Source: Candidatus Berkelbacteria bacterium CG10_big_fil_rev_8_21_14_0_10_43_13 (GTDB taxonomy: Bacteria > Patescibacteriota > UBA1384 > XYA2-FULL-43-10 > 1-14-0-10-43-13). From it: a DNA stretch of 41,519 bases. The stretch's first letter is position 1. Each line of letters begins with the position of its first letter. The notes under the pieces were generated by a model. That model ran no database searches, was not told the DNA's origin, and worked only from the letters and a program-made list of their open reading frames with translations. The translations under genes were made by a program, and so were the position numbers. The stretch spans positions 1 to 41,519 of the forward strand of contig PEZW01000028.1 in NCBI GenBank assembly GCA_002773985.1, in the 5' to 3' direction. Below are positions 16,132-37,983 of this stretch, one piece after another.

Positions 16132-16175
16132 GCCCTCCGGTGCAATCGCGTGTGTAGCGCGATGCTCCGAAGGGC
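16132..16175 (-). terminator. Long GC hairpin 3' of the small orphan ORF
   Basis: GCCCUUCGG/CCGGAGGGC outer stem and AUCGCG/CGCGAU inner stem; weak U-tract. Confidence 0.6.
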
Positions 16176-16208
16176 AACCGGTTCTTGCTGGCCCGGGCGG
16201 GGGCGAGG

Positions 16209-16418
16209 CTAGCCGAAATCGAGGTGATATGACCTCTCCTCTCCGTCCTTGGTGAGCATCACCCCCCTCGAAGTGTTCTCGCTCGGCTTCTCCAGCCGGC
16301 AGAGTTCCGAGGTGCCCTTGCCGCGACCCCCACAAGTCTCAGCAACAGAGCAACCCCTTTCACAGGGGAGGTCGACCGTCGGCGCAGGACCCCCCGACAG
16401 TGCATGACAACCCGCCAT
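16209..16418 (-). CDS. Small Cys-containing hypothetical protein (69 aa, GC-rich cassette)
   Basis: GGGAGA RBS before the ATG; upstream TTGACT-17-TATAAG promoter (16458-16486); downstream hairpin. Confidence 0.55.
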   Translation of the reverse strand: MAGCHALSGGPAPTVDLPCERGCSVAETCGGRGKGTSELCRLEKPSENTSRGVMLTKDGEERSYHLDFG

Positions 16419-16534
16419 TTCAAATTCTCCCACCAGCACATTGCTGGTATGCCTAAACTTATACAACAAAAACATTGCCCAGTCAATTGAATTTATTTTT
16501 TCTTTCTGGTACGTTGTGCTTAGTTGACACGGAG

Positions 16535-16600
16535 TGTCATCCCGCACTTGATGCGGGATCTTATTAAATTGAAAGATTCCCGATCAAGTCGGGAATGACA
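16535..16600. repeat. GTCA-type palindromic doublet
   Basis: tgtcatcccgcacttgatgcgggatc ... gattcccgatcaagtcgggaatgaca. Confidence 0.9.
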
Positions 16601-16613
16601 GAACTAAAAAAAT

Positions 16614-16724
16614 ATGAGTTTAAAGATAGGCATCGTCGGATTGCCAAACGTCGGCCCCACTTCGCTAAAGCTACGCGGGGCGAGTCTGCTGAAAGTAATA
16701 TTTGGAGAGTCGAATGTCACTTAA
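16614..16724 (+). pseudogene. Duplicated ychF 5' fragment interrupted by a palindrome (36-codon uORF)
   Basis: Translates MSLKIGIVGLPNVG-PTSLKLRGAS-LLKVIFGESNVT*; the first 14 aa differ from the YchF start at one position. Confidence 0.85.
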
Positions 16725-17871
16725 AATTGCAATAGTTGGGCTTCCAAACGTCGGCAAGTCGACTTTATTCAACGCCCTAGTCAAAGGTTCGAAAGCAGAA
16801 GCTGCCAATTATCCCTTTTGCACTATCGAACCAAACACTGGTATTGTCGAAGTGCCGGACGAACGCCTCGCTCCGCTCGGCGAAATTTCACATTCAAAAA
16901 AAATAATCCCGGCTGTCGTCGAGTTTATCGACATCGCCGGGCTGGTTCGTGGCGCGTCCAAGGGTGAAGGTCTTGGCAATAAATTCCTCGCCCACATCCG
17001 CGAGTGCGACGCTATCGGCATGGTCGTCCGTTTTTTCGAAGACGGCAATGTCACCCATGTCGAGAATAAGATTGACCCGGAGGCTGACATCGCTACTATC
17101 GAAACTGAATTGCAATTAGCCGATATCACCACCGTCGACAAACGGCTTTTTTCGATCGAAAAGGAGCTGAAATCTGGTAGCGCCGAATCAAAATACGCTC
17201 ACTCCGGTTTGCAAAAAATAAAAGATAAATTATACGCCGGCGAGAACGCCCGCGAAGCCGATCTTGACGACTCTGAGCAAGATGCACTCAAAGGCTTGAA
17301 CTTGATGACGCAAAAACCGATTCTCTATATTGCCAACGTTTCAGAAGAACAGTTGAGCAATCCCGCTACTGTCATTCCTGCGAAAGCAGGAATCCAGGAC
17401 TCGCCACATAGATCCCCGGGCACCACTCTCAAGAACACCGCTGGTCCCGAGGATGACAACAAAAAGAATGACAATTTCGTGCCGATTTCGGCTAAAATTG
17501 AAGCTGAATTGAATGAATTGACCGACTCAGAAAAGGCCGAATACCTCGAAACTCTAGGTATTAAGAATACTGGCTTAAACGAACTGATAAAAGAAGCTTA
17601 TAAAACACTCGGGCTCATCACCTACTTCACCTCCGGCGAAAAGGAGACTCGCGCTTGGACGATACGCAAGGGAGATACTGCACCAATTGCCGCCGGCGCG
17701 ATTCACACCGATTTTACCAAGGGCTTCATCGCCGCTGAGATCGTCCAATGGGCTGATTTCTACGCCCAGGGCGGCTGGACCGGCGCCAAAACTCACGGCC
17801 TTGTCCGAACTGAGGGCAAGACCTATGTAGTGAAAGATGGGGACACAATTATTTTCAAGTTCAATAACTAG
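16714..17871 (+). CDS. ychF: Redox-regulated ATPase YchF (Obg family) with in-frame palindromic insertion
   Basis: GLPNVGKST, ANYPFCTIEPN, DIAGLVRGASKGEGLGNKFL, TGS domain (AGAIHTDF, EGKTYVVKDGD). Confidence 0.98.
   Translation: MSLKIAIVGLPNVGKSTLFNALVKGSKAEAANYPFCTIEPNTGIVEVPDERLAPLGEISHSKKIIPAVVEFIDIAGLVRGASKGEGLGNKFLAHIRECDAIGMVVRFFEDGNVTHVENKIDPEADIATIETELQLADITTVDKRLFSIEKELKSGSAESKYAHSGLQKIKDKLYAGENAREADLDDSEQDALKGLNLMTQKPILYIANVSEEQLSNPATVIPAKAGIQDSPHRSPGTTLKNTAGPEDDNKKNDNFVPISAKIEAELNELTDSEKAEYLETLGIKNTGLNELIKEAYKTLGLITYFTSGEKETRAWTIRKGDTAPIAAGAIHTDFTKGFIAAEIVQWADFYAQGGWTGAKTHGLVRTEGKTYVVKDGDTIIFKFNN
17370..17458. repeat. GTCA-type palindromic element inserted in frame in ychF
   Basis: tgtcattcctgcgaaagcaggaatcc ... 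gatccccggg ... cccgaggatgaca, encoding VIPAKAGIQDS...GPEDD. Confidence 0.88.
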
Positions 17872-17991
17872 GCTCGCCAAATCCGCCAACTGGCGGAGGC
17901 GATGTGATCATCTTTCGTTTCAATAACTAAACTATCTTGCGAAATATTGAAATCGTGCTAATATACAAGTCAATGCGACGGGGGGGCGTCG

Positions 17992-18135
17992 ATGCGTTTT
18001 TTGGGTCCGATCTGGCCGCTGTGGCTGGCATCCGCTGCCGCAGTGGTTGTTTTATGGCTCATCATCGTGGCAAATCGACTACTTACAAAGCCGACAACCA
18101 CCGATGACACTACTGCTGACCAAATGGGAGGCTGA
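17992..18135 (+). CDS. Small single-TM protein (47 aa)
   Basis: MRFLGPIWPLWLASAAAVVVLWLIIVANRLLTK...; G-rich RBS; promoter TTGCGA...TGCTAATAT upstream; below the ORF-track length cutoff. Confidence 0.65.
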   Translation: MRFLGPIWPLWLASAAAVVVLWLIIVANRLLTKPTTTDDTTADQMGG

Positions 18136-18137
18136 GG

Positions 18138-18278
18138 ATGAAGCATCTCACACTGGTTGCACTGGCTGGCTGGGCGCTGGCAATCAGGCTGACGGTAGCG
18201 TACTTCAGACTGAAACGTCAGCTGGTTCGCGCTCGAGACATGCTCGACACCGCCAGAATCCTCGCTGACCCGCATTGA
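18138..18278 (+). CDS. Small single-TM protein (46 aa)
   Basis: MKHLTLVALAGWALAIRLTVAYFRLKRQ...; GGAGG RBS; 2 nt after the previous stop. Confidence 0.65.
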   Translation: MKHLTLVALAGWALAIRLTVAYFRLKRQLVRARDMLDTARILADPH

Positions 18279-18299
18279 CACGGAGGAGGAACTGAGACC

Positions 18300-18545
18300 A
18301 TGGTACTGTGGTATTACGTCATCGTCGGAGTGATGATCGGCGTTGTCGTCGGAGCGATCGTCACCTACACTCTCGAGAAGGCGACGTTGAAGGTCTATCG
18401 TCGTCGCGATCACGAGCTGAGAGCAGAGACCATTGGTCTCGAGATTCAGCTTAAGGTAGCACAGGAAGAGGCCGAGCGGTACAAAGCGTGGACCAGGCTG
18501 CACGAAGTGTCTGGTGGGGTGGACCGAGGCGACAAGCCATTCTGA
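18300..18545 (+). CDS. Small single-TM/coiled-coil protein (81 aa)
   Basis: N-terminal hydrophobic helix followed by a charged helix; GGAGGAGG RBS. Confidence 0.75.
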   Translation: MVLWYYVIVGVMIGVVVGAIVTYTLEKATLKVYRRRDHELRAETIGLEIQLKVAQEEAERYKAWTRLHEVSGGVDRGDKPF

Positions 18546-18559
18546 ACCCAAACAATCCC

Positions 18560-18590
18560 GGAGCCGTTGTGGCACTCGCCCAGCGGCTCC
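18560..18590 (+). terminator. GC hairpin closing the first mini-operon (no U-tract)
   Basis: GGAGCCGUUG/CAGCGGCUCC stem. Confidence 0.6.
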
Positions 18591-18662
18591 AAGGAGACTT
18601 AAATTATTTCATTTAAATATACAAAAGTGCTATATTGACCAGAGAGACTAGGAGGCTCGTCT

Positions 18663-18779
18663 ATGCTAATTGTGCTCAAGTGGCTAGGAGGGCTGGCTCT
18701 CCTCGTCATTGGCATCATCGGACTGTTCGCCCTGAACCATTTCTTGGCGAATATGTCGCAAAACGACAGCGCACGCTAG
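18663..18779 (+). CDS. Small single-TM protein (38 aa)
   Basis: MLIVLKWLGGLALLVIGIIGLFALNHFLAN...; AGGAGG RBS; TGCTATATT extended -10 upstream. Confidence 0.68.
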   Translation: MLIVLKWLGGLALLVIGIIGLFALNHFLANMSQNDSAR

Positions 18780-18787
18780 GAGTAGAG

Positions 18788-18952
18788 ATGGAAAAGCTAG
18801 GTTTTCTGCTCGGAGCAGCACTGGTGCTGTTCGTTACGATGGTTGTGATCATCCGTCGCGGTCACCACAACGAGCAGTCGCACCGCGCCACACGACTGAC
18901 GATGGGGGCACCGAAGCCTCGACCGACCAAGCCAAGAGAAAAAGACGCTTGA
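18788..18952 (+). CDS. Small single-TM protein with basic tail (54 aa)
   Basis: MEKLGFLLGAALVLFVTMVVIIRRG...; AGGAG RBS overlapping the previous stop. Confidence 0.7.
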   Translation: MEKLGFLLGAALVLFVTMVVIIRRGHHNEQSHRATRLTMGAPKPRPTKPREKDA

Positions 18953-18981
18953 ACAACGGCTGTCATCGCCCGCTACTGCCC

Positions 18982-19016
18982 GGAGGCTGACGTGCCATCG
19001 TGCATCGTCAGCCTCC
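18982..19016 (+). terminator. GC hairpin closing the second mini-operon (no U-tract)
   Basis: GGAGGCUGACG/CGUCAGCCUCC perfect 11-bp stem. Confidence 0.65.
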
Positions 19017-19198
19017 ATGGAGAACTCGAATCCTTGTCAATCTAATATTTTTCTGCTACTATAAACACACAAATTAATTAACTTTCTTCCATCGAGAAGA
19101 ACCGATGCTCGAACTAAACTGAGCGTCCTTCGACTCCTTCGCCTGCCATGAGCGCAGTCGAATGGCTCAGGATACCTTCGGTACCAAAAGGAGAATTT

Positions 19199-19933
19199 AT
19201 GCGAAAGTACGAAATTACGTACCTTGTTTCTGATCTTGTGCGTGAAAACGATTTGAACAAAGTGACCGGCGCGGTTGCTGGTTTTGTGACTGAGCTTGGC
19301 GGCAAAGTAGAAAAAGAAGAGATCTGGGGACGACGCAAACTCGCCTACCCGATCAAGAAGGCTGACTTCGCTACTTACGTCACGCTCAATTTCGAAATGC
19401 CGAGCGAAAAGTGTCCTGTGTTTGAACGCGATTTGCGTCAAAATACTTCTATCATTCGCCATTTGGTAATCGTCAAAGAACATGGTCATGAGAAGATTTC
19501 ACTTTCCAAGGCGGAGATTGCCGAGTCTGGTGATATAGAAGAAGTTGTTGGCGGTGAGAAATCGTTTGAAGCCATCGAAGGACAGACAGAGGAAAGTCGC
19601 AGTTTGATGGCCAAGCGTGAGGCTGGCGAAGACGAGGCTGAGGAAGAAACCGAGACAAAGTCTGAAACAGAGAAAGAAGAACCCAAGGGAGTTGAGGCAG
19701 AAACAGAAGAGCCTGAAATCAGGGAAGAAAAGGAAGAGGAAAAGCCAGTCGAGAAAAAGAAACCAGCGGCAAAACCAAAGAAGACAGTAACCGAAAAACC
19801 CACTACAGAAAAAGTTGTCGAGGAAAAGCCAAAAGCAGCCAAAGTAAAGAAGGAAAAGAAGACCGAGGATGAAGCTGATCGTTTGTCAAAACTAAACGAT
19901 GAGCTCGACGACATCCTCAAAGATGAGTTATAA
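19199..19933 (+). CDS. rpsF: 30S ribosomal protein S6 with long charged C-terminal tail
   Basis: MRKYEITYL, WGRRKLAYPIKK, IIRHLVI; AAGGAG RBS; rpsF-ssb-rpsR order. Confidence 0.95.
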   Translation: MRKYEITYLVSDLVRENDLNKVTGAVAGFVTELGGKVEKEEIWGRRKLAYPIKKADFATYVTLNFEMPSEKCPVFERDLRQNTSIIRHLVIVKEHGHEKISLSKAEIAESGDIEEVVGGEKSFEAIEGQTEESRSLMAKREAGEDEAEEETETKSETEKEEPKGVEAETEEPEIREEKEEEKPVEKKKPAAKPKKTVTEKPTTEKVVEEKPKAAKVKKEKKTEDEADRLSKLNDELDDILKDEL

Positions 19934-19939
19934 GGATAA

Positions 19940-20070
19940 TGTTCAAATTAAGAATTACTAATGTCACAAATCAATACCCAAAAACCAATGCTTCAATGAT
20001 TTGTTTTGACATTTAGAAATTAGTGAATTAGGATTTGATTAGAAATTAGAAATTAGAAATTCGAATTTCC
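19940..20070. repeat. Degenerate heptamer array plus inverse AGAAATT array
   Basis: ...ggatttgatt agaaatt agaaatt agaaatt cgaattt; its reverse complement resembles 7780-7815 and 39030-39080. Confidence 0.7.
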
Positions 20071-20087
20071 TTTCGAAGAAAGGTCCT

Positions 20088-20558
20088 ATGTTAAACTTAA
20101 ACCGTGCTCAAGTACTGGGTAATTTGACCAAGGATCCGGATATGCGATTCACCCCAAACGGTCAGGCCGTTGCCAACTTTAGTGTCGCGACAAATCGGAA
20201 ATGGAAAGGCCGAGATGGCGCGCCCGACGGTGAAGCGACTGAGTATCATGACATCGTCGTCTGGGGCAAACAAGCTGAAGCTGTCGTGCCGATGATGAAA
20301 AAAGGCGGACCTGTTCTTGTCGAGGGCAGACTGCAGACCAGAAACTGGGAAGGTCAAGACGGCGTCAAGCGTTACAAGACAGAGATCATCGCTGACAACA
20401 TAATCGTCCTTGGCAGTCGCAGTGGTGGCAGTGGAAATTACACACCCAAATCTGAGGGCAGTGGAACGACCGACCCGTCCGACCAGAGTGAGGCGAAGAC
20501 GAACACCCCAGATAAAAACAGTGATGAAGAAATCGATATAGAAGAAATACCCTTTTAA
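20088..20558 (+). CDS. ssb: Single-stranded DNA-binding protein
   Basis: LNRAQVLGNLTKDP..RFTPNG, VEGRLQTRNW, acidic EEIPF terminus. Confidence 0.98.
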   Translation: MLNLNRAQVLGNLTKDPDMRFTPNGQAVANFSVATNRKWKGRDGAPDGEATEYHDIVVWGKQAEAVVPMMKKGGPVLVEGRLQTRNWEGQDGVKRYKTEIIADNIIVLGSRSGGSGNYTPKSEGSGTTDPSDQSEAKTNTPDKNSDEEIDIEEIPF

Positions 20559-20561
20559 CCA

Positions 20562-20657
20562 CGAAAATACGAACGAATACAAAAATACAAACAGACTGTT
20601 GTGGTCTGTAGTCTAAGTTATTTTTCTCTTCGTATTTTCGTATAATTTGTATTTTCG
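20562..20657. repeat. CGAAAATA-type octamer array plus inverse array
   Basis: cgaaaatacgaa ... ttcgtattttcg. Confidence 0.7.
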
Positions 20658-20676
20658 CAATTAATTAGGAGACTTT

Positions 20677-20886
20677 ATGGCTCGAAGAAGTAGATGTTTA
20701 ATTTGTAAGGCCAAAATGGCCGAAGTTGATTACAAAGATGTGACGACAATCGGTCGTTATCTTGACCGTTGGAACAAAATTTCCCCGGCCAGCCGCAACA
20801 ACAATTGCAGCCGTCATCAACGCCAGACCGAAACTGCCATCAAAAGGGCGAGATTTTTGGGATTGCTGCCGTTTACTGTACGATAA
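20677..20886 (+). CDS. rpsR: 30S ribosomal protein S18 (zinc-ligand type)
   Basis: CLIC, VDYKD, CSRHQR, AIKRARFLGLLPF. Confidence 0.96.
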   Translation: MARRSRCLICKAKMAEVDYKDVTTIGRYLDRWNKISPASRNNNCSRHQRQTETAIKRARFLGLLPFTVR

Positions 20887-20897
20887 AAATAAAGGAT

Positions 20898-20986
20898 TAT
20901 TCGAACACGGATTCTTTTACACAGATCAACACAGATAATGTCGAGTGATCCGTGAATATCCGTGTGACAAAATCCGTGTTGGAATA
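20898..20986. repeat. CACRGAT/ATCCGTG palindromic element, copy 1
   Basis: Three CACRGAT units then three ATCCGTG units. Confidence 0.88.
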
Positions 20987-20992
20987 TACATT

Positions 20993-21553: not shown

Positions 21554-21560
21554 AGGGTTG

Positions 21561-21704
21561 TTCCAGCACGGATCTTGTCACACAGATACACACTGATTAT
21601 TCTTCGAGCAAGCGAAGCGATTCGAGAAGTCTCTATTAGTTCTCGACAAGCTCGAACAATAATTTATATCCGTGAATATCCGTGTAAAGAGATCCGTGTT
21701 AGAA
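21561..21704. repeat. CACRGAT/ATCCGTG element, copy 2, with nested TTCGAG/CTCGAA element
   Basis: Same arms as copy 1; internal ttcgagc...tcgagaa...ttctcga...gctcgaa (about 21604-21657). Confidence 0.85.
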
Positions 21705-21711
21705 TAAACTT

Positions 21712-22221: not shown

Positions 22222-22297
22222 AAAAATCCTCTTGTTTTTTGTCCGTTTGTTTTTTGTCCGTCATCCCGGACTGTAAGCTTGAGATCCGGGATCTTTA

Positions 22298-22343
22298 AAT
22301 ACATCAACAATTTCAAGCGATCGTTTGAAATTGTTGATGTATT
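22298..22343. repeat. 46-bp palindrome centred on GCGATCGT (one mismatch)
   Basis: aatacatcaacaatttcaa-gcgatcgt-ttgaaattgttgatgtatt; a GTCA-type half element lies adjacent at 22260-22294. Confidence 0.93.
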
Positions 22344-22476
22344 AGAATCAATAATCTCAGATTTAGTTCAGCTGCCTCTTAGCTCAAGAATTTGAGATAA
22401 AAGGGGCGTGCGGAAACTTGGGTTGTCTCCGCCGGATTGCCCTCCTGATTCTCGCTCTGGCCGTTTCGCTGCTGGA

Positions 22477-22758
22477 TCACCGCCATCTGAACAGTTGACA
22501 GATCTGTTGCCAGAGTGACGGTTTGAAGACACGGATGTGCCCGCAGTTTTCTTTGTCCTCCAGAATGACAATCATCTGACCACAGCGCAGCGGGTGTTGA
22601 CGACAGATCGCCATGATCTCCGGAAGCGTACGCGCCTCTCCGATTGTCACAGCTCCCTCGAGCTGCTGTTCTGGGGCGTATGCATTCTCATAGACCTGCC
22701 TAGAGACCACGACTGCCTCGCACGATACCATAATCTTCTCCCCAAACCTAACGGTCAC
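22477..22758 (-). CDS. Hypothetical protein (93 aa, GC-rich cassette)
   Basis: GGAGGTG RBS before the GTG; followed by a GC hairpin at 22402-22445. Confidence 0.65.
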   Translation of the reverse strand: MTVRFGEKIMVSCEAVVVSRQVYENAYAPEQQLEGAVTIGEARTLPEIMAICRQHPLRCGQMIVILEDKENCGHIRVFKPSLWQQICQLFRWR

Positions 22759-22864
22759 GGTCGGTTTTCACCTCCGCATCGTTGGACATTCTAATAAATA
22801 CAGTAATTTGGCGCTTTTGTAAAGGAATAAATGGCATTCTGTGTGTAAAATACAAATATACAAC

Positions 22865-22899
22865 AAAAAAATCCCCCTGATTTCTCAAGAGGATTTTTT
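22865..22899. terminator. Intrinsic terminator downstream of groEL
   Basis: aaaaaaatcc...ggatttttt hairpin with A/T runs on both sides. Confidence 0.65.
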
Positions 22900-22919
22900 C
22901 GTCATTAACTTAGTTTAGT

Positions 22920-23033
22920 TGTCATCCCCGCGCAGGTCTTCGATTGTACTCAGACTGTGAGCAACAGTCGAACAGCGGGGATCCATTCCTTAATGTTTGT
23001 GCTACCTGGATTCCCGTCTTCACGGGAATGACA
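22920..23033. repeat. GTCA-type palindromic doublet with nested TTCGA element
   Basis: tgtcatccccgc...gcggggatcca ... tggattcccgtcttcacgggaatgaca. Confidence 0.88.
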
Positions 23034-23041
23034 GTTGTGCA

Positions 23042-24795
<1,754 letters not shown>

Positions 24796-24805
24796 ACCAT
24801 CCTTT

Positions 24806-25084: not shown

Positions 25085-25168
25085 TTTTCTCCTTATTAAC
25101 TTAAAAAATGGCTACTAATAATAAATATCAATTAGAACAAAAAATGTCAAGTCTACTTTACAATTTGT

Positions 25169-25232
25169 CTACAAATTACAAATTTAAATACTAATTTACA
25201 AATAATTTGTATGTTTGTAATTGATTTGTAAT
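25169..25232. repeat. TTACAAAT-type array plus inverse array
   Basis: acaaattacaaat...ttacaaat / atttgtatgtttgtaattgatttgtaa. Confidence 0.65.
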
Positions 25233-25254
25233 ATGCAGAATTTTGGCAATTAAT

Positions 25255-25298
25255 AAAAAATGCGGCAACAATCCAAGGGGGAAAGATCGCTACCGCAG
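25255..25298 (-). ncRNA. Candidate ~45-nt hairpin small RNA or attenuator
   Basis: TTGACT-18-TATATT (25303-25332) immediately followed by a 13-bp stem with three G-U pairs, a UUUCCCCCUUG loop and U6. Confidence 0.45.
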
Positions 25299-25430
25299 AC
25301 ACAATATACTTGATTTCAGTCTCTGAAGTCAAGCGTAAAATAGACTAGAAATTTTTAATGTCTTTATTTTTTAGCATTATTTTGTTATTCTTCAGCATGT
25401 TTCGACGGGAGAAAGGAAGATCAAATCCCC

Positions 25431-26042
25431 ATGAAACCAATCACTCGTGCTTACATCGATGTCGATAGCAAGAAGGGCTTGGCCCCATTCTCTCGGCACC
25501 TTGTCAAGCACGGTATCAAGATCATCTGCCCGCAGACGATGGTCTCAGAGTTTGGCAGCCGTGGTGTTCAAGTCACTGCTGTCAAAATGGTGTACTCCTC
25601 ACCATTGCTCCAGACAACCAATGGCAAGCGCAGCCCGTGTCAGAGCGCGCTACAAGGAGAAAAACCGAACAGGCTGTTCTCCGTCGACGAGATGTTCTGC
25701 TTCAACGTTGGCGGGGTTGAGCAGATCGGCCTCGTCGTCGTCAACCTGCCGCTGCCCTGCAAGGTGTCACGACCCCAACTCGGTGATCAAAGCACTGAGG
25801 TTGAACGCACTCGGCTCGCTCTGTTGACAGCGGCGACCTACGAATCCGGCGTCATCGTCATCTACGACCCGTTCCAGTATCGATCTTTCGTGAAGAAACT
25901 GGAGTGGCGTGGACTCGATCATCAGGCCGATGCCGCTTACCTGTGTGAGCTGCGACAAAGTGCCTTGGGCTTTCTCGCCGCTTTCACTGCACAGCGCGCC
26001 CAGGCCTGTGCCGCAGCCACCGAGACCAGCGACGATGAATGA
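25431..26042 (+). CDS. Degenerate PurH N-terminal (IMP cyclohydrolase/MGS-like) domain protein
   Basis: ITRAYIDVDSKKGL..F...LVKHGIKII, IGLVVVNL and GVIVIYDP.QY align by eye to the PurH N-domain; conserved active-site motifs absent. Confidence 0.72.
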   Translation: MKPITRAYIDVDSKKGLAPFSRHLVKHGIKIICPQTMVSEFGSRGVQVTAVKMVYSSPLLQTTNGKRSPCQSALQGEKPNRLFSVDEMFCFNVGGVEQIGLVVVNLPLPCKVSRPQLGDQSTEVERTRLALLTAATYESGVIVIYDPFQYRSFVKKLEWRGLDHQADAAYLCELRQSALGFLAAFTAQRAQACAAATETSDDE

Positions 26043-26249
26043 AATCGCGTCGCTACACTCCCCGCAGCCACCCTGAGCAATGTGTTCCAAAAAAAATACA
26101 GAGTTCTCGGTGGCTGCACAGCCCCCAAAATAATTTGCAAAAAAATATTTAGAAGCCAGCATTTAACAGTACTGGTCTTTCTTTTTTTGTCTGATTATGG
26201 TATGGTCGGCTCAACCTCAAGCACTGAACTTGAGACCAGGAGACAGACC

Positions 26250-26873
26250 ATTCTACAGATTCATCGGGCACTACTCTGCCCGCGTGCATTCAACAATCTC
26301 GGCGGATTGACAAGAGGGTTGCTTGATCTCGGTGTTAGGACAGACACAACAAGCGAGATCATCAGCGCCTTGAGTTTCAATTGCATTGAAGATGAACTTC
26401 TCACTGATGTCATCACGCTTCCGGGCATTGGTGGCTGTTACCGCTCCGCGGCCTGGTGCATCCACCCTCGCATCATCGGGGCGATTGCCGCTGCGACACC
26501 TGAAGATGTGACGCGCGCAGACTTCTGCAAGACCATCGGTGTCCAGCCGATCGACCTCGTCATCGTCAACTTCATCGACCCCGAAGTGACGGAAGAAACG
26601 ACGGCTGAGGAAGCGGCGATGATGATCGACGTCATGCGCTACGCCCTGCTTGTCGCGGCGATGAACCCCGAAGTTGCCGTGCTGACTAAGCCGAATGACT
26701 ACGACGAGTTCCTCACTGAACTCCGAAAGCACAACGGCTCGATCAGCCAGGAGTACCTCGACGACCTCAATGCTCTGGCTTGTGACACGCTGATGATTCT
26801 CAACCATGATCTCTTCACGCTGACACAGCCGATCCACGCCGGCACCCACGCCCAGTCGGCACCGACCCCCTGA
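26250..26873 (+). CDS. Second degenerate PurH N-terminal domain protein (start uncertain: ATT 26250 or ATG 26202)
   Basis: IHRALL, IHPRIIGAI, GVQPIDLVIVNF, TAEEAAMMID, VAVLTKPNDYDEFL.EL...G.IS match the PurH N-domain pattern. Confidence 0.78.
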   Translation: MLQIHRALLCPRAFNNLGGLTRGLLDLGVRTDTTSEIISALSFNCIEDELLTDVITLPGIGGCYRSAAWCIHPRIIGAIAAATPEDVTRADFCKTIGVQPIDLVIVNFIDPEVTEETTAEEAAMMIDVMRYALLVAAMNPEVAVLTKPNDYDEFLTELRKHNGSISQEYLDDLNALACDTLMILNHDLFTLTQPIHAGTHAQSAPTP

Positions 26874-26970
26874 TGTTTCCCCATCCCGCCATCACCCGAG
26901 ACTATTGCCTTGTGCGATCCTGTCTCGGGTGGTGGCCCCTGCCCCAAAAATCTCCACAGATTTTCGAAAT

Positions 26971-26999
26971 TTGCAAAAAAATATTGTTTCTAGTATATT
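26971..26999 (+). promoter_or_regulatory. Sigma70-type promoter for the four-helix-bundle gene/pyrG
   Basis: TTGCAA-17 nt-TATATT. Confidence 0.6.
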
Positions 27000-27043
27000 G
27001 GAATAAATACAACATAGTATCCTCAAAAAAAACTCCACGAGCG

Positions 27044-27147
27044 CCAGCGAGTAAGCTAGTCAGCTTATCAGCCGGTCAGTAAAACTAGAAGGAGTTTTTT
27101 GCATGTTATACAGCTGGTCAGCTTATCAGCCGGTCAGTTAGTCAGTT
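27044..27147. repeat. NNNTCAGC octamer arrays 5' of the four-helix-bundle gene
   Basis: tagtcagc ttatcagc cggtcagt; 22-bp direct repeat at 27059-27080 and 27117-27138. Confidence 0.9.
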
Positions 27148-27156
27148 GGGAGGAAA

Positions 27157-27522
27157 ATGGCAAAGATTAACAGCTTCACAGAAATCGTTGCTTGGCAAAA
27201 AGCACATGAGTTAGTGCTTGCAATTTATTCTCTGACAAAGGATTTTCCAAAAGAAGAGATGTTCTGTCTAGCAAGCCAGGTACGTCGCGCTGTCGTCTCA
27301 ATTGCTGCAAACATCGCCGAAGGATTCAGACGAAAAAGCTACAAAGATAGTGACCATTTTTATACAATTTCCGCAGGATCACTGGAAGAAGTAAAATACT
27401 ATCTCGTTCTCTCTCGTGATTTGAGCTATATCACAGAGGCTGAGTATTTAAAATATTTTGATTTAGCAGAAGAAGTTAGCAAAACTCTGAGCGGATGGAA
27501 AAATTCGCAAAATAAATATTAA
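27157..27522 (+). CDS. Four-helix-bundle protein (23S rRNA intervening-sequence protein family, TIGR02436-like)
   Basis: F.EIVAWQKA..L...IY..TK.FPKEE.F.LASQVRRA.VSI.ANIAEG, I..GSL.E. Confidence 0.93.
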   Translation: MAKINSFTEIVAWQKAHELVLAIYSLTKDFPKEEMFCLASQVRRAVVSIAANIAEGFRRKSYKDSDHFYTISAGSLEEVKYYLVLSRDLSYITEAEYLKYFDLAEEVSKTLSGWKNSQNKY

Positions 27523-27523
27523 T

Positions 27524-27568
27524 ACTGGTTAGCTGATAGGCTGAAAGGCTGACGGGCTGACAAGCTGG
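27524..27568. repeat. Inverse GCTGANNN octamer array 3' of the four-helix-bundle gene
   Basis: actggtta gctgatag gctgaaag gctgacgg gctgacaa gctgg. Confidence 0.9.
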
Positions 27569-27575
27569 AGATAAA

Positions 27576-29344: not shown

Positions 29345-29398
29345 TAAAAATTACATACAAAATTGAAACGGTCGTTTCAATTTTGTATGTAATTTTTA
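29345..29398. repeat. 54-bp palindrome centred on ACGGTCGT
   Basis: taaaaattacatacaaaattgaaacg-gt-cgtttcaattttgtatgtaattttta, between convergent genes. Confidence 0.95.
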
Positions 29399-29407
29399 TA
29401 TTGAGAA

Positions 29408-31945: not shown

Positions 31946-31982
31946 GTCCCCTCCATTTCAATTGATGGCCGTGAATAACCAC

Positions 31983-33800: not shown

Positions 33801-33882
33801 GCCGAGTTCAAGCCCGATTTAATTTTATTTCGACTTTATTATAACACAGCTTGGTGAAATTCAGAACACAGAATTCAGTAGT

Positions 33883-34033
33883 TGCTCACTCGCCCTCTTT
33901 GTCATCCTCGGGTTCAACGGTGAAGCTCGAGAGAGAAGCCCGGGGATCCATAAAAAATTTGTGCTACATGGATTCCCGCCGGAGTTTACCCCGTACTCTG
34001 ATACGGGGTGGGAACGACAGATACGAGTGAGCA
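33883..34033. repeat. Composite GTCA-type palindromic element inside a 10-bp inverted repeat
   Basis: tgctcactcg / cgagtgagca outer arms; gtcatcctcggg...cccggggatcca ... tggattccc...gggaacgaca; nested ccccgta...tacgggg. Confidence 0.85.
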
Positions 34034-34108
34034 GTTGCGAAATTTGACTTCTTTTTCAGGATAATGAATAATTAGGATGTTAACAAAAAAAATAAATGAA
34101 ACGGAGGA

Positions 34109-34615
34109 GTGATGGGATGGTGGCCATTTGGTAAGAAAAAAAAGGATGAAACACTTGATGGAGTATTAAGTCAAAGTGCGACACAAAATCAGCCTGCTGA
34201 TGCAAATGCAACCCCAGATCCAGCAACAGCAACTACTACTACTACTGCGGCTCCGACCGATACGCCAGCTGATACTAGTGCTTCCGGTACTACCTCAACC
34301 GCAGCTCCAGCTGATAGTTCGTCACAGGAATTATCAGATATTCCTTCACCGCTCAATCCCGATACAGACACATTACAACCCGCCAGTGACGACACAGCTG
34401 CTGCACCGGCAATATCAGATGTTCCGATCGAACGTGACGCCGTTATTGATTTGCCAGAGCACCCAGCTGCAGCTGAGACCGGTGACGGTTCTGAGCCAAC
34501 ACCACCGGCTACGCCAGACCAATCAACTGATGGTGCCACACCACCGGCTACGCCGACTCCTGCTGCCACAGACGACACGACTCCTGATCAACCAACCCCG
34601 CCGGCACAGCCCTAA
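34109..34615 (+). CDS. Pro/Thr/Ala/Asp-rich low-complexity protein
   Basis: GGAGGAG RBS; MGWWPFGKKKK N-terminus then an acidic disordered sequence; followed by a terminator. Confidence 0.75.
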   Translation: MMGWWPFGKKKKDETLDGVLSQSATQNQPADANATPDPATATTTTTAAPTDTPADTSASGTTSTAAPADSSSQELSDIPSPLNPDTDTLQPASDDTAAAPAISDVPIERDAVIDLPEHPAAAETGDGSEPTPPATPDQSTDGATPPATPTPAATDDTTPDQPTPPAQP

Positions 34616-34630
34616 TCTCGACAAAAGTTT

Positions 34631-34671
34631 ATAAATAAAAAAGTCTCCATCACGGAGACTTTTTTATTTAT
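34631..34671. terminator. Bidirectional intrinsic terminator
   Basis: ataaataaaaaagtctcc-atcac-ggagacttttttatttat between convergent genes. Confidence 0.88.
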
Positions 34672-34685
34672 TGTGTTATGCAAAT

Positions 34686-34925
34686 CTAGTCTGAATTGCT
34701 CAAAATTTCGTTTAGGATTTCTTTTGCCTTTGTCTCACGACGCTTGGTCTCGGCTTTCTCAGTCGCGACAGTTATTATCAAAACTTCACCATCTTTGACT
34801 TCTCTTGGCAACAATTTTGCCGATAACTCGATCTTCTCATCATCAGCATCAAGCAAGACCGCTATATCCCCTTCAGTCCGGTCGAGAGTAAGCTCATGAA
34901 TGGCAGTGTCGTTGGATGATTTCAT
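34686..34925 (-). CDS. DUF3006-like small protein
   Basis: LDRTEGDIAVL...LP.EVKDGEVL...ETKRR pattern. Confidence 0.75.
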   Translation of the reverse strand: MKSSNDTAIHELTLDRTEGDIAVLLDADDEKIELSAKLLPREVKDGEVLIITVATEKAETKRRETKAKEILNEILSNSD

Positions 34926-34935
34926 ATAAAGCTGA

Positions 34936-37044
34936 CTAGCTGATAGACTTGTTGGCCTTCTTCCCACTGAGAAGCATTCCGCCAGCGATGAAAATGATTA
35001 GAACGGCGACGATAATGTATTTGGCAGTTGCGGTGACGGTAGTTGTGATCAGGGTGCTGGCGATCAGCAGGGCGATGATGTTAACAACCTTGATGATCGG
35101 GTTGATCGCTGGACCGGCAGTGTCTTTGTAAGGATCACCGACTGTATCACCGGTGACAGCCGCAGCGTGAGCAAAGGAACCTTTACCACCATGCGCGCCA
35201 TCCTCAATGTATTTCTTGGCATTATCCCAGGCACCACCACCGGAGGTCATCGAGATAGCGACGAAGAGACCGGTGATAATTGCACCGATCAGGAAGCCAC
35301 CCAGAGCAACTGGACCGAGAAGAAAGCCGACCAGAATTGGCGAAACGACGGTAATAACTGATGGCAAAATCATCTCGCGAATAGCAGCCTTGGTCACGAT
35401 ATCGACAGCCGTACCGTACTCCGGCTTCGTCTTGCCCTCCATGATACCCTTGATCTCCTTGAACTGTCGTCGAACTTCGACGACAACCGCACCGGCCGCT
35501 TTGCCGACTGCTTCCATCGCCAATGAGCCGAAGTAATATGGGAGGAGTCCACCGAGGAACAAGCCGACCAAGACGTAAGGATTGGTCAGGTCAAAAGATA
35601 AATGCGAACCGCTATTGGCCAATTTCTGCGTGTAGTCAGAGAAAAGAACCATCGCCGCCAAGGCCGCTGAACCGATGGCATAGCCCTTGGTCACAGCCTT
35701 GGTCGTGTTACCGACAGAATCAAGAGCGTCTGTATGAACACGAACATCGGCAGGTAGCTCTGCCATTTCTGCGATACCGCCAGCGTTGTCAGCCACAGGA
35801 CCGAAGGCGTCGATGGCGACGATGATGCCGGTCATAGACAACATTGCCATCGCCGCAACAGCGATACCGTAAAGACCAGCCAGCGAGTAAGCTGAGAGAA
35901 TGGCGACACAAATCATGATGACAGGAGCAGCAGTTGATCGCATCGAAACGGCCAGGCCGGCGATAACATTGGTACCATGGCCAGTGTTTGATGCCTCAGC
36001 GATAGATTGAACCGGCTTGTAATCCTTTGAAGTGAAATATTCTGTGATGACAACCATCGCTGCAGTTACCAGCAGACCGACAAGAGAGGCAAGATAAAGA
36101 TCTTTGACTGCATAAGTGCCGTTGTCTGTCATCAACCATTTGGTAATGTAGTAAAAAACGATTGCCGAAAGAATACCAGCAACAGCCAAGCCACGGTAAA
36201 GCGTGCCCATGATGTTCTTGGACTTTTTATTCAATTTGACAAACCAGCTACCGATAATCGAGGTCGCGATTGAAGCTGCGCCAAGAACCAGCGGGTACAG
36301 GATAGCATTTTCATAACCTGAGAAGAAAAGGTGTCCCATCAGCATCGTCGCAATAGCAGTGACAGAGTATGTTTCAAACAAATCTGCCGCCATGCCAGCA
36401 CAGTCACCGACATTGTCACCGACATTGTCAGCGATTACGGCTGGATTGCGCGGATCATCCTCGGGAATACCGGCTTCAACTTTACCGACCAGATCAGCGC
36501 CAACATCAGCCGCTTTGGTAAAGATTCCACCACCAAGACGAGCGAAGATTGAGATGAGTGAGCCACCAAAGCCAAGTCCGATCAGAGCATCGATATCTTT
36601 GAAAAAGCTATAGAAACCAGCGACAGCCAGAAGTGCCAAGCCGACGACTAGCAAGCCAGTGACGGTGCCGGATTTAAAGGCGACGTCCATACCAGCTGGC
36701 AAGCCTTTGCGGCAAGCTTCAGCCGTGCGGACATTGCCACGGACCGAAACCATCATGCCGATATAGCCAGCCAAGGCTGAAAAAACCGCACCAACGAGGA
36801 AACCGAGAGCAACTTTATAATTTAGAGCGTAGAGCAGAACGACAAAAAGAATGACAGCGACAACAGCAACAGTCGAATACTGTCTGTTAAGATAGGCCAT
36901 CGCCCCTTCCTGAATCGCCTTGGCGATGTCAGTCATTTTCTTGTTGCCACTTTCCATCTTGCTGATGCGCCGCGCCAGAAGCAGGCCATAGATAATCGAG
37001 ATAGCCGCCATGACAAGCGCTATTGTCATCGAAGTCGTGTACAT
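34936..37044 (-). CDS. hppA: Membrane-bound pyrophosphatase (probably K+-independent, H+-translocating)
   Basis: [67 protein letters not shown]. Confidence 0.97.
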
Positions 37045-37262
37045 AATCTCTCCCACATTAATTTAAATTAAAAATGCTGAATCACGAATAAACCTTCATA
37101 ATCCAATAACTTTTAATTTAAACTTCCATCAGTGCCAACTTACCACAAGCACAAAATTTCTTCAATCTTGACGAAAGATAATAATTGTTGTAAAAGTAAT
37201 TATGCCCGACCCGAAGCTCGGCAAATCGCCGAGTTGCTATTCTACCGACTCAGGAGAGCCAA

Positions 37263-37892
37263 ATGACTGACAGTAGAGCCTGCTCGGTCTACCTGCAACT
37301 ACAGGAGATCGACGGAGGGATGGTTGAAGACGGTGACGAACTGAAAGTTGGTCGCTACTACAAGCTCGTCGTCGAAGACCTCTCGAGCGGAGCTGACCGC
37401 CTCGATCCCGAGTGCGGTATCACCGTGACGACAACTCTCAATGGGAACGAACTGCGAACCTTCTTCGACCCGCAAACCACGATAGCTCGGATTGCGGAGG
37501 AGGGGGTGTATGTCGTCAGCCTCAAGATTCCGGGTCGCAACGAACCGGTGGTCTTGACTCTGATTGCCGGCCCTCCACCAGTCTTCGAGTCACAGATCGA
37601 GGTTTACATGGAAGCTGGCGGTATCCACAAGGTCAAGGCGACACCAAGAAATCCTGTCCGGGTACTGATGAGTGTACAGGTCCGAGTGTTTGGCATCGTC
37701 CAGGGCGAGGCCAGACGTGAGTTGAACGCCGACAGAATCGCTGTGTTCGGACCTGATGGCAAGGAGCACAGTCTCAACAAGACCTTCGCCCGGTTTAATC
37801 CGGTTGAACCTGGTCTACACCGAATCGTCTGCCACGTCCACGGTGACAACGATGGACTCCTCGTCGAGACTGAGCTCGAGGTTGTCCAGTAA
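37263..37892 (+). CDS. Hypothetical protein with two Ig/filamin-like beta-sandwich repeats (GC-rich cassette)
   Basis: AGGAG RBS; promoter TTGACG-17-TAAAAG (37168-37196); IAVFGPDG...FNPVEPGLHRIVCHVHG; 3' hairpin at 37930-37960. Confidence 0.72.
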   Translation: MTDSRACSVYLQLQEIDGGMVEDGDELKVGRYYKLVVEDLSSGADRLDPECGITVTTTLNGNELRTFFDPQTTIARIAEEGVYVVSLKIPGRNEPVVLTLIAGPPPVFESQIEVYMEAGGIHKVKATPRNPVRVLMSVQVRVFGIVQGEARRELNADRIAVFGPDGKEHSLNKTFARFNPVEPGLHRIVCHVHGDNDGLLVETELEVVQ

Positions 37893-37983
37893 GGCCGGCG
37901 GCTTGCCTCGTTCAGAAAAGTCGCAGAGCAGACGTCCGCCCCCATGAAGGGCGGACATCTAGCGTTTAATAAATATTCTTACC

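Follow-up and report, generated by a model that had tools for sequence, protein, structure and literature searches.

Seven GC-rich units in a 41,519-nt stretch of DNA from a Candidatus Berkelbacteria bacterium (contig PEZW01000028.1; hereafter the window) belong to a genome-wide class of GC-rich genes that is almost entirely lineage-specific and occupies intergenic slots re-used between species. We tentatively interpret the units as accessory genes of the chromosome, comparable to morons, whose turnover within these slots proceeds by DNA recombination. The first-pass annotation had described seven GC-rich, transcript-like units, an observation that is confirmed here. Their coordinates were reproduced within a few bases by likelihood fitting of two change points per intergenic slot, with the exception of the left (5′) edge of u6, which was found to be gradual and not sharp. 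The units, their fitted segments and their parts are as follows (SD, Shine-Dalgarno site).

16132–16486, minus strand: u1, from predicted promoter to GC-rich 3′ tail; fitted segment 16132–16416; tail fold z −4.35
16486–16458, minus strand: u1 candidate promoter TTGACT-17-TATAAG, read by eye from the sequence
16450–16432, minus strand: u1 5′ hairpin, followed by SD GGGAGA
16418–16209, minus strand: u1 ORF, 69 aa, Cys-rich, GC3 0.70
16139–16124, minus strand: u1 terminator hairpin with U-tract, from a terminator scan
17975–18595, plus strand: u2, mini-operon of three small ORFs (from the ORF list), each preceded by an SD; fitted as one segment with u3, 17975–19028; 3′ hairpin z −5.18
17992–18135, 18138–18278 and 18300–18545, plus strand: u2 ORFs of 47, 46 and 81 aa (ORF list)
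18640–19028, plus strand: u3, with a 14-bp 3′ hairpin without U-tract, z −2.60
18788–18952, plus strand: u3 ORF, 54 aa, SD AGGAG, resembling a membrane protein
22403–22803, minus strand: u4, with by-eye promoter TTTACA-17-TATTTA, SD GGAGGTG and GC-rich tail
22758–22477, minus strand: u4 ORF, 93 aa; fitted segment of the unit 22403–22787
22360–22439, minus strand: u4 conserved 3′ module, a variable GC hairpin followed by a conserved 39-nt hairpin
25403–26126, plus strand: u5 (identical to its fitted segment), with a 203-aa ORF at 25431–26042
~26064–26117, plus strand: u5 long 3′ hairpin without U-tract, z −5.33
26134–26945, plus strand: u6, with a 223-aa ORF at 26202–26873; fitted segment 26416–26945
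~26888–26936, plus strand: u6 15-bp 3′ hairpin, z −6.17
37168–37964, plus strand: u7, with the GC switch at 37204; fitted segment 37204–37964; tail z −2.94
37168–37196, plus strand: u7 candidate promoter TTGACG-17-TAAAAG, read by eye from the sequence
37263–37892, plus strand: u7 ORF, 209 aa, preceded by a 5′ hairpin and SD AGGAGAG and followed by two 3′ hairpins

The host is a tiny-genome groundwater bacterium of the CPR, and the units are wedged between its housekeeping genes. Unit GC lies between 0.558 and 0.627, compared with 0.22–0.43 for the 100 bp on either side and 0.451 for the whole window; GC of 0.55 or more is reached in just 2.3–3.8% of genome windows sized 320–700 bp. Earlier hand counts of 35/60 (line 26581) and 24/60 (pyrG line 28201) were both exact on recount. 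The GC3 of the units is 0.60–0.70, except for the first u2 ORF (47 aa, 0.52), and that of neighbouring core genes 0.44–0.55. The units thereby also exceed the GC-rich core genes singled out beforehand as a counter-argument, groEL (GC3 0.52) and hppA (0.55). In all six fitted segments the GC-rich tract overshoots the stop codon by 72–84 nt, and in the five sharp-edged ones its 5′ edge falls between 2 nt inside the ORF and 59 nt upstream of the start codon. The tract begins within ~10–20 nt of the −10 boxes read by eye for u1, u4 and u7, and its end lies just beyond the 3′ hairpin. An AT-rich spacer of 49 nt (GC 11/49) divides u2 from u3.

Each 3′ tail folds into a hairpin (7/7, z −2.2 to −6.2). 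For four tails none of 200 shuffles folded as well as the real sequence, with 2, 7 and 2 of 200 doing so for the other three. The claim of a long 3′ hairpin in every unit, mostly lacking a U-tract, is upheld: u2, u3, u5 and u6 have no U-tract, and one follows the hairpin in u1, in u4 and, weakly, in u7. Every unit is preceded by an AT-rich, promoter-like region. Both promoters quoted in the first-pass annotation are present in the sequence, but in a strict consensus scan none of the seven GC switches had a promoter within 60 nt, as the by-eye −10 boxes lack the final T. Promoters were therefore read by eye, giving candidates in ~5/7 units; these match the promoter type of the clade, and none falls inside the GC-rich tract. 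The SD sites are at the right spacing from the unit ORFs, and GC1>GC2<GC3 periodicity was found in 7/9 unit ORFs checked (within u2 it is confined to the 46-aa and 81-aa ORFs). The units are protein-coding genes equipped with Shine-Dalgarno sites, and their predicted products are two diverged paralogues resembling IMP cyclohydrolase, one protein with Ig-like features, and small membrane proteins.

The u2 ORFs look like N-terminal transmembrane helices, judged by eye, and no Pfam, NCBIfam or PHROG family matched them above cut-off. The u7 protein retrieved nothing but itself among 5.8 billion clusters; its Atlas model resembles tandem Ig-like domains (TM by query 0.50–0.65), which we treat as a lead only. 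No DNA match to u1, u2/u3 or u7 was found in 22 genomes of the family.

A phmmer search of 1.84 billion representatives with u5 returned seven matches besides itself, all of which are PurH-like (best E 7.7e-9, 29% identity). On this alignment, u5 is predicted to be a divergent homologue of the IMP-cyclohydrolase (MGS-like) domain at the N-terminus of PurH. BLASTP aligns u5 with u6 at 32% identity across 69 aa (E 7.5e-5), and u6 is a putative distant paralogue of u5. NCBIfam purH models score u5 and u6 at 18–46 bits against cut-offs of 402–528, so that even the u6 E of 3.2e-12 is sub-threshold, and with an E limit of 0.01 Pfam MGS matched neither. The aligned PurH proteins carry a GRVKTLHP motif that u5 does not retain and u6 retains only in part, and the partner AICAR formyltransferase domain (PF01808) had no match in the genome. 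The 16-mer TTTGCAAAAAAATATT lies behind both u5 (26134) and u6 (26970) and has three copies in the genome. The copy at 26970 overlaps promoter-like −35 hexamers (TTTGCA/TTGCAA), and the one at 26134 could, as read by eye, be a similar promoter element for u6. If the shared 16-mer is read as a promoter, the duplicated u5/u6 unit would have run from promoter to promoter, as DNA. At 17 syntenic loci, none of the u4, u5 and u6 proteins was found.

Genome-wide, 60/854 ORFs (~7%) exceed the median GC plus 2.5 robust SD, compared with 10 below the corresponding low limit. Behind 31 GC-rich ORFs with free 3′ DNA, the first 60 nt after the stop codon keep a GC of 0.55–0.59, followed by a drop to 0.36, whereas GC is flat at 0.35–0.40 behind 145 other ORFs. 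Over the first 90 nt of downstream sequence, folding energies have a median of −32.6 kcal/mol for GC-rich ORFs and −16.8 kcal/mol for the others (p = 3e-11). The proposal that the units form a distinct cassette-like class under its own compositional regime is supported, genome-wide and family-wide, and the class occurs in every sampled genus of the family. Its composition is of a foreign type: third codon positions are rich in C (0.36) and G (0.32), and its proteins are enriched in Arg, Pro, Cys and Trp and depleted in Lys and Ile. Across five genomes the second GC mode seems to follow host GC, which would speak against import but is a trend based on small numbers and partly a threshold effect.

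The class is almost entirely lineage-specific. In a cross-genus test using tblastn against this genome, with ORFs of at least 80 aa from 200-kb samples of four other genera, 1/36 GC-rich ORFs had a match as opposed to 448/720 other ORFs (p = 1.4e-13); a six-frame control gave 2/36 against 51/72. For ORFs of the sister species the counts were 3/52 (GC-rich) and 408/715 (others), and in the opposite direction, from this genome to the sister species, 2/41 and 361/491. Conservation and synteny in relatives had been named as an argument against the cassette proposal: it holds in part, for the slots and not for the genes inside them.

Gains and losses are evident at individual slots. Five of 20 comparable island slots of this genome are bare spacers of 47–204 bp in the sister species, and 6/22 sister-species island slots are bare here (3–280 bp). 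The pyrG-to-P-type ATPase interval holds an island in the sister species and only 174 bp in the window; the ychF|rpsF slot measures ~110–300 bp in five genera, and the PRC-barrel-to-groEL spacer is 820 bp here, with u4, versus about 88–279 bp in 14 relatives. A GC-rich purL is found in 0/18 other genomes of the family (best outside relatives 44–53% identical), and PurH-like genes are likewise missing from almost the whole family. The same strain in four other samples carries the units in place, and no strain without a unit was seen, those samples included.

Under our tentative interpretation, each unit would be a predicted autonomous accessory transcription unit, the chromosomal counterpart of a phage moron: a clade-type promoter lying in AT-rich sequence, then a short structured leader carrying a strong SD, between one and three orphan ORFs, and finally a long GC-rich stem-loop, which may end or stabilise the transcript. 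The genes would be drawn from a GC-richer accessory pool circulating mainly among these CPR bacteria; we infer that units are gained, lost and swapped as DNA, not as RNA copies, at a limited set of intergenic slots, by DNA uptake and then recombination on conserved flanks and end modules. The GC tract would match the transcript extent because the imported segment comprises gene, leader and terminator hairpin, set in AT-rich spacers. No donor was identified for the window units.

Morons of phages HK97 and HK022 are, in the account drawn on here, single genes added between conserved syntenic neighbours, with GC unlike their surroundings and their own promoter and terminator, and missing from related genomes (Cumby et al. 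2012, PMC3594210). The units are similar in GC (0.56–0.63 against 0.22–0.43 in the flanks) and in their position between genes adjacent in relatives (PRC-barrel|groEL, ychF|rpsF). As regards promoter and terminator, hairpins are present in 7/7 units and by-eye promoter candidates in ~5/7, none of which passes the strict scan. The units differ from morons in that the backbone is a bacterial chromosome (groEL, pyrG, ychF, rpsF, hppA) and not a phage, in lacking a phage link, in slot re-use between species and in the persistence of high GC. PHROG returned no family for 7/9 unit ORFs, and tblastn found no match to u6 or u7 among 50,697 phage records. In aquifer Patescibacteria, the same kind of organism in the same habitat, up to 13% of genome length is attributed to horizontal transfer and most single-gene transfers are reported to be between Patescibacteria; the portions of that study used here describe islands, single transferred genes and prophages, and do not mention a uniform GC-rich single-gene architecture, slot re-use or a shared 3′ module (PMC12455944).

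The u4 module bears directly on the alternatives. Its conserved hairpin, CGCCCCUUUUAUCUCAA-N4-UUGAGCUAAGAGGYAGCG, is imperfect, with a variable 4-nt loop and fixed internal mismatches. The first-pass annotation had proposed a covariance model of the 3′ hairpins: model R1, built on the u4 hairpin, scores 68.2 bits here and finds this one site in the genome, and the hairpins of the units are not one family. Including this genome, the module occurs in 10/44 genomes of the order, with one or two copies each, and in the other genomes it follows 16 mutually unrelated ORFs at 40–112 nt. Across six genera it is 82–93% identical, as against 65–75% for groEL and pyrG DNA, and in two relatives (G017 and G010) its site is not the PRC-barrel|groEL slot, as would fit a portable end module. 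A 45-nt flank of the module is 93% identical in the sister species, after which similarity breaks off sharply.

It is possible, if on balance unlikely, that the units are instead resident genes of fixed slots, whose ORFs evolve beyond recognition between congeners and whose GC is kept up by a force acting on transcribed units; this could be GC-biased conversion, a repair bias linked to transcription, or selection for mRNA structure or stability. Among 241 collinear slots, 15 are occupied in both this genome and the sister species (3.5 expected; odds ratio 15.6), as would suit residence. In several of the 15, short edge blocks are 78–93% identical around unalignable interiors, and in one shared slot the two same-strand lipoproteins (205 and 204 aa) show no detectable similarity. 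The u1 unit and its sister-species counterpart are on the same strand (69 and 67 codons) with ORF start and stop aligned, the 3′ tail is collinear and conserved (score 31; 0/500 shuffles as high) and the 5′ hairpin shows a compensatory change. This strong slot sharing and the collinearity of u1 speak against import, so that in-place divergence fits as well as replacement. Furthermore, three GC-rich genes common to both species are 39–49% identical with both copies at GC 0.56–0.61, and a fading import signature is not expected to last so long. The GC tract follows the transcript-like unit class-wide, and enrichment in Cys, Trp and Arg is as seen in weakly constrained or young proteins. Residence is, however, at odds with the clear gains and losses (bare sister slots; purL and PurH-like genes nearly absent from the family), with the occurrence of the u4 module in other genera behind unrelated ORFs at different loci, and with strand agreement of the largest GC-rich ORF in just 7/12 comparable slots. 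Highly conserved core genes also reach a GC3 of 0.45 at most. We know of no mechanism that raises GC in a few transcription units only.

A more far-reaching reading, which we consider improbable, is a dispersed cassette system with standardised ends, in which GC-rich single-gene units with their own promoters would pass between genera and replace one another in fixed slots, at least one subset being guided by the 39-nt hairpin behind a variable terminator stem. If true, this would amount to integron-like gene shuffling in a CPR order without an integron platform or IntI, and the lasting GC-richness would mark a separate gene pool or a mutational regime not relaxing to host composition.

Still less probable is hairpin-directed recombination, with the 3′ hairpins acting as single-strand or site-specific sites that move promoter-bearing cassettes. 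The imperfect u4 hairpin, its pair changes favouring the gene-sense strand (UG 15, UA 5 and CG 1 at one pair), the module's spread behind unrelated ORFs and the sharp break of similarity at its edge would all fit. But the module is present in 1/7 units, the remaining hairpins have no common sequence (no 10-mer is common to five or more of 57 GC-rich ORF units, upstream or downstream), there are neither arrays nor an attI-like platform, the motif had no match in viral contigs, and the u4 hairpin is also readable as a plain terminator with U-tract and second stem. The genome's only two tyrosine recombinases are Xer-like: they pass only the Xer-type model NF040815 and score 125 and 222.8 bits against a cut-off of 265 for the integron-integrase model TIGR02249. 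The statement that the window holds no integrase or transposase stands, with no family match among the 49 larger window ORFs scanned. The attC-like idea is not supported as a general mechanism, with neither IntI nor a common hairpin found, and survives for the u4-module subset because the module trails 16 unrelated ORFs elsewhere.

Integron cassettes are promoterless, are arrayed next to attI and Pc, and come with IntI and attC sites of one structural family. The units resemble them as small, mostly orphan single-ORF elements, each with a terminal imperfect hairpin, and in the u4 hairpin type common to unrelated ORFs. They differ in being scattered among core genes across 22 kb, on either strand, in having their own candidate promoters, and in the absence of IntI, attI and a common hairpin family.

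We regard it as very doubtful that the units are not genes at all, that is, structured non-coding RNAs or spurious ORFs in GC-rich spacers such as REP arrays. GC-rich DNA yields long ORFs on both strands, the u1 peptide is short and unconserved, and Cys and Trp are enriched, as such a reading would have it. Set against this are the well-placed SD sites, the codon-position periodicity, the apparent homology of u5/u6 to PurH, the Ig-like u7 Atlas model and the lack of any Rfam match across units 1–3, even at E up to 1.

RNA-mediated capture, in which units would be reverse-transcribed mRNA copies running from +1 to terminator, is scarcely credible despite the class-wide onset of the tract near the −10 boxes and its end past the hairpin: RVT_1 (PF00078) had no match in this genome (91% complete) although the control search was positive in 3/14 genomes, the unit ends examined showed neither a poly(A) or A-rich tail nor a target-site duplication, the promoters lie outside the tract, the u6 5′ edge is not sharp and the 16-mer after u5 and u6 suggests promoter-to-promoter duplication as DNA. 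Around u4 a single direct repeat is present, an imperfect 19-mer doubling as one half of a terminator hairpin.

The units can finally be compared with REP/BIME hot spots of recombination and insertion. Two REP copies bracket the u4 unit, and elsewhere in the genome the same two are found only 30 nt apart (C18:18195–18300). The REPs differ from the units in being context and not cargo, the unit bodies being unique sequence. REP-like hairpins border several slots.

The seven GC-rich orphan-gene stretches between core genes of the window (units 1–7, u1–u7) are real compositional intervals, with a GC content of 0.558–0.627 compared to 0.22–0.43 in the 100-bp flanks. A two-change-point fit for each intergenic spacer (slot) reproduces the limits drawn in the first-pass annotation, apart from the left edge of u6, which is gradual, and both GC hand counts given there are exact. 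The fitted segments and their contents are as follows.

16132–16416: u1, a Cys-rich 69-aa peptide
17975–19028: u2 and u3, merged in the fit and separated by a 49-nt spacer (GC 11/49); u2 has three small ORFs (47, 46 and 81 aa) and u3 one of 54 aa, with hydrophobic, membrane-like helices at the start, by eye
22403–22787: u4, a 93-aa protein
25403–26126: u5, a distant paralogue of u6 (32% identity over 69 aa)
26416–26945: u6, the second of these paralogues
37204–37964: u7, 209 aa, matching only itself among 5.8 billion clusters

Correctly spaced SD sites precede the unit ORFs, and seven of the nine checked show the coding pattern GC1>GC2<GC3. GC3 is 0.60–0.70 in most unit ORFs compared to 0.44–0.55 in pyrG, recA, groEL, ychF and hppA; apart from the 47-aa ORF of u2 (0.52), the units are richer than even the GC-rich core genes. 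Sequence comparison indicates that u5 and u6 are homologous to the N-terminal IMP-cyclohydrolase (IMPCH) domain of PurH, with the GRVKTLHP motif of that family largely lost. The Atlas model of u7 resembles tandem Ig-like domains, which we take as a lead only, and AlphaFold2 run without an alignment gave an all-beta model at pLDDT 49. A phage origin of u6 and u7 was considered and dropped, as tblastn gave no match in the phage collection; a PHROG search returned a weak phrog_30501 match for u5 and u6 and nothing else.

The surrounding core genes are of ordinary bacterial type (recA, ftsK, RNase J, ychF, rpsF-ssb-rpsR, efp, groES/EL, pyrG, P-type ATPase, hppA). ARAGORN found no tRNA or tmRNA in the window, and no Rfam-type RNA family reached the gathering score there, or an E-value of up to 1 in 16000–19100. 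The sequencing runs containing this stretch are labelled groundwater or aquifer metagenomes. An assembly chimera was ruled out as the source of the units because four independent samples contain one and the same strain, units included, at 0–1 differences per contig.

The GC-rich tract begins no more than 59 nt 5' of the start codon, and continues for 72–84 nt past the stop codon in all six segments. The long 3' hairpins of the first-pass annotation are borne out by stable folds in all seven tails (z −2.2 to −6.2); a U-tract is mostly lacking 3' of the hairpin, as had been stated, but u1 and u4 have one, and u7 a weak one. The two promoters quoted for the units do occur in the sequence, but their −10 boxes end in G and a strict scan finds no promoter at any of the seven units, so the unit promoters are by-eye calls.

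Across the whole genome (838 kb, 28 contigs, 43.2% GC, 91% complete; the window is contig C23), 60 of 854 greedy ORFs of at least 60 aa exceed the median GC by more than 2.5 robust SD, compared to 10 on the low side, and the GC distribution is two-humped, with the second hump at +0.10 to +0.16. For 31 of these GC-rich ORFs with free 3' DNA, downstream GC is 0.55–0.59 for 60 nt and then 0.36, compared to a flat 0.35–0.40 for 145 other ORFs. The first 90 nt downstream fold with a median of −32.6 kcal/mol, compared to −16.8 kcal/mol for the others (p = 3e-11). Third codon positions of GC-rich ORFs in both this genome and its sister species (G001) are A 0.13, C 0.36, G 0.32–0.34 and T 0.17–0.19, compared to about A 0.24, C 0.23, G 0.21 and T 0.32 in the remaining genes. 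Among amino acids, Cys (2.5x), Trp (2.2x), Arg (1.7x) and Pro (1.4x) are raised, and Lys (0.40x) and Ile (0.54x) lowered. GC3 of core genes climbs with conservation from 0.41 to 0.45 and no higher; the GC-rich class is therefore not merely the top of a codon-bias gradient. Paralogues within the class are few, and no 10-mer is common to at least 5 of 57 units, upstream or downstream.

Class members elsewhere in the genome include purL, an adenylosuccinate-lyase gene, an AIR-carboxylase-like gene, a purM-like gene (its second ORF matches the AIR-synthase C-terminal domain), a radical-SAM gene, two S26-peptidase-like genes and one Tad4-like gene. The purine-synthesis genes, all in the GC-rich class, lie at C4:147–3414, C9:15099–19016 and C10:15583–16802. 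The predicted pathway looks partial, because no AICAR-formyltransferase domain was found in this genome. No donor of purL can be named, since the best genome-contig matches (Acidobacteriota, Terriglobia and Patescibacteria MAGs) are just 44–53% identical and spread over several taxa. The Tad4-like gene, C28:6333–6950, is a GC-rich 205-aa ORF scoring 27.1 bits against a Pfam cut-off of 25; the Tad4 family, known from phages, inhibits type I Thoeris. The most extreme island, C21:16151–18347, holds three ORFs without a Pfam family (GC 0.69–0.70, GC3 0.80–0.87) and may have arrived later or from a different source. A further gene in the window, at 34109–34615, encodes a 168-aa Thr/Pro/Ala-rich low-complexity protein that is GC-rich via its amino acids only (GC3 0.32); being conserved in the sister species, it is not in the class despite its look in a GC plot.

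The sister species (71% complete, 544 kb compared) has core proteins ~71–73% identical to those of this genome. Matches there were found for 3 of 52 GC-rich ORFs compared to 408 of 715 others, and in the reverse direction for 2 of 41 compared to 361 of 491. Among 241 collinear slots, GC-rich DNA is present in both species in 15, here only in 10, in G001 only in 19 and in neither in 197 (odds ratio for co-occupancy 15.6, p = 1e-8). By tblastx, seven of the 15 co-occupied slots are without similarity, and some of the other eight have short edge blocks only; a slot on C6 holds an orthologue common to both species. The GC-rich ORFs of co-occupied slots agree in strand in 7 of 12 cases, an uninformative ratio. 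Of 20 island slots that can be compared, 5, that of purL included, are bare spacers of 47–204 bp in G001.

In G001 the u1 slot is occupied by an island of GC 0.68 in the same orientation, with start and stop aligned (69 versus 67 codons) and the 3' tail conserved (score 31 versus a shuffle mean of 14.2; 0 of 500 shuffles as high). The peptide shows no conservation. The u7 slot has two other GC-rich ORFs there, and the pyrG/ATPase-gene spacer has an island in G001 and none in the window. DNA alignment of the u7 and u2/u3 slots with G001 shows nothing conserved beyond the rpsF promoter region. Protein likeness between the window units and ORFs in G001 slots was likewise sought; Smith-Waterman z does not rise above noise (z is 5.6 for the top pair, which joins unrelated slots), and by-eye resemblances are therefore not claimed.

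We tentatively favour, at somewhat less than even confidence, the reading that the units are autonomous accessory units on the chromosome, of the kind of phage morons, which come from a GC-richer pool and turn over as DNA at re-used slots. The next reading, which we consider rather unlikely, is that the units evolve in place and very fast under a force that maintains their GC. The re-use of the same slots between species and the conserved unit ends speak for it, as does the persistence of GC in orthologues common to both species: three shared GC-rich genes are 39–49% identical, with GC 0.56–0.61 in both copies. However, the genome-wide counts contain clear cases of gain and loss, which argue against evolution in place. 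Were GC-richness an equilibrium rather than a fading import signal, a process outside the standard amelioration picture would be needed.

CPR bacteria are viewed as streamlined, with little space for accessory DNA. Here, ~7% of the ORFs form a compositionally separate, almost wholly species-specific layer that sits between essential genes at re-used slots; among its members are acquired purine-synthesis genes and many small proteins with membrane- or lipoprotein-like sequences. No description of a GC-rich single-gene class in CPR genomes was seen in the titles, abstracts and passages covered.

A GC-rich tail of ORFs is visible in 200-kb samples of all four other genera sampled: 15/207 in G002, 12/206 in G013, 9/201 in G010 and 4/203 in G033. 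Only 1 of 36 GC-rich ORFs of at least 80 aa from these genera has a tblastn match in this genome, compared to 448 of 720 others (2 of 36 versus 51 of 72 in a six-frame control), with p-values that overstate independence because the four genomes are kin. The gene order PRC-barrel, groEL, groES, gap, pyrG is kept in the fetched relatives, with groEL, groES and pyrG in 17/17 loci and the PRC-barrel gene in 14/17; none of the 17 loci encodes the u4, u5 or u6 proteins. The PRC-barrel/groEL spacer is 820 bp here compared to about 88–279 bp in 14 relatives, and the ychF/rpsF slot is about 110–300 bp in five genera. In the groES/pyrG slot (25085–27575), 14 of 17 relatives have a conserved nucleotidyltransferase-like gene (~212–283 aa) that neither this genome nor the 544 kb of the sister species contains; u5, u6 and a 23S-rRNA-IVP/bAvd-like gene (27157–27522) stand here in its stead, and several relatives also hold different GC-rich ORFs in the gap. 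At the DNA level, 22 family genomes contain nothing that matches u1, u2/u3 or u7, edge REP repeats excepted. IMPCH-like genes occur in 2 of 22 family genomes; purL was found in none of 18 other family genomes, but 2 of 12 genomes that belong to the order and not to the family carry it.

Hairpin-directed cassette recombination, proposed for the units as an attC-like process, appears improbable and would apply to the u4-type subset. The genome has two tyrosine recombinases, both Xer-like and below the integron-integrase cut-off, and no common hairpin family runs across the units; the u4 hairpin covariance model finds a single copy in the genome. What the u4 type does have is a conserved 3' module. 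The 45-nt flank downstream of u4 is 93% identical in G001, after which similarity breaks off abruptly; it belongs to the module, in which a variable GC stem-loop is followed by a conserved 39-nt hairpin, CGCCCCUUUUAUCUCAA-N4-UUGAGCUAAGAGGYAGCG. An alignment of 22 copies has 14 predicted pairs, three of which stay paired via two-sided changes, and one that reads UG 15, UA 5, CG 1 favours the gene-sense strand. The module was found by BLAST in 6 of 22 other family genomes; with the covariance model, 10 of the 44 genomes tested across the order, including this one, have it at 1–2 copies each. Scanning metagenome contigs for the motif yielded 33 stretches, 16 with the extended consensus by eye. 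The module sits 40–112 nt 3' of ORFs in 16 groups without BLASTP similarity (E up to 1e-3), and in two other genera (G017 and G010) lies away from the PRC-barrel/groEL slot. Rfam gave no match, with chance-level IS128 only around four copies, and viral contigs gave 0 motif matches. Should this common 3' hairpin be a recombination site, it would point to a new means of moving single genes.

Upstream of the module-bearing ORFs, the only common 5' element is a general promoter pattern, a TTGACA-like −35 and a TTGTAT-type −10. The same look, with ~15–17 nt before TTGTAT (e.g. TTGTTGTATAAG), is common to several genera (loci L061–L097) and to u1 and u7, and hints at an extended −10 as a trait of the clade.

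REP copies at 22260–22293 and 22975–23035 bracket u4, 681 bp apart. The same two copies are 30 nt apart on contig C18 (18195–18300), so u4 sits within a REP pair that is closely spaced at this other locus. An allele without u4 was considered for X2 and X3, two runs with contigs that join 22293 to 22975 via 30 other letters; those letters are C18:18241–18270, between the same two REPs, and the joint is therefore the paralogous REP locus. A 46-bp near-perfect palindrome at 22298–22343 (23-nt arms, 96% complementary, without spacer) separates a REP copy from the u4 3' module.

RNA-mediated capture of the units, the other route the first-pass annotation had raised, is very improbable: no reverse transcriptase was found in the genome at 91% completeness, and neither an A-tail nor a target duplication is seen at the unit ends. 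Avd proteins go with diversity-generating retroelements, and the gene at 27157–27522 has a match to the 23S rRNA intervening-sequence protein family and a weaker one to bAvd-like proteins, in a genome without a detected reverse transcriptase. The ychF gene (16702–17871) has ~26 extra in-frame codons at 17356–17479 (peptide ...IPAKAGIQDSPHRSPG...), built from a repeat that recurs on C22, C5, C9 and C18 at 81–96% identity; the sister species has just 46 nt at that position.
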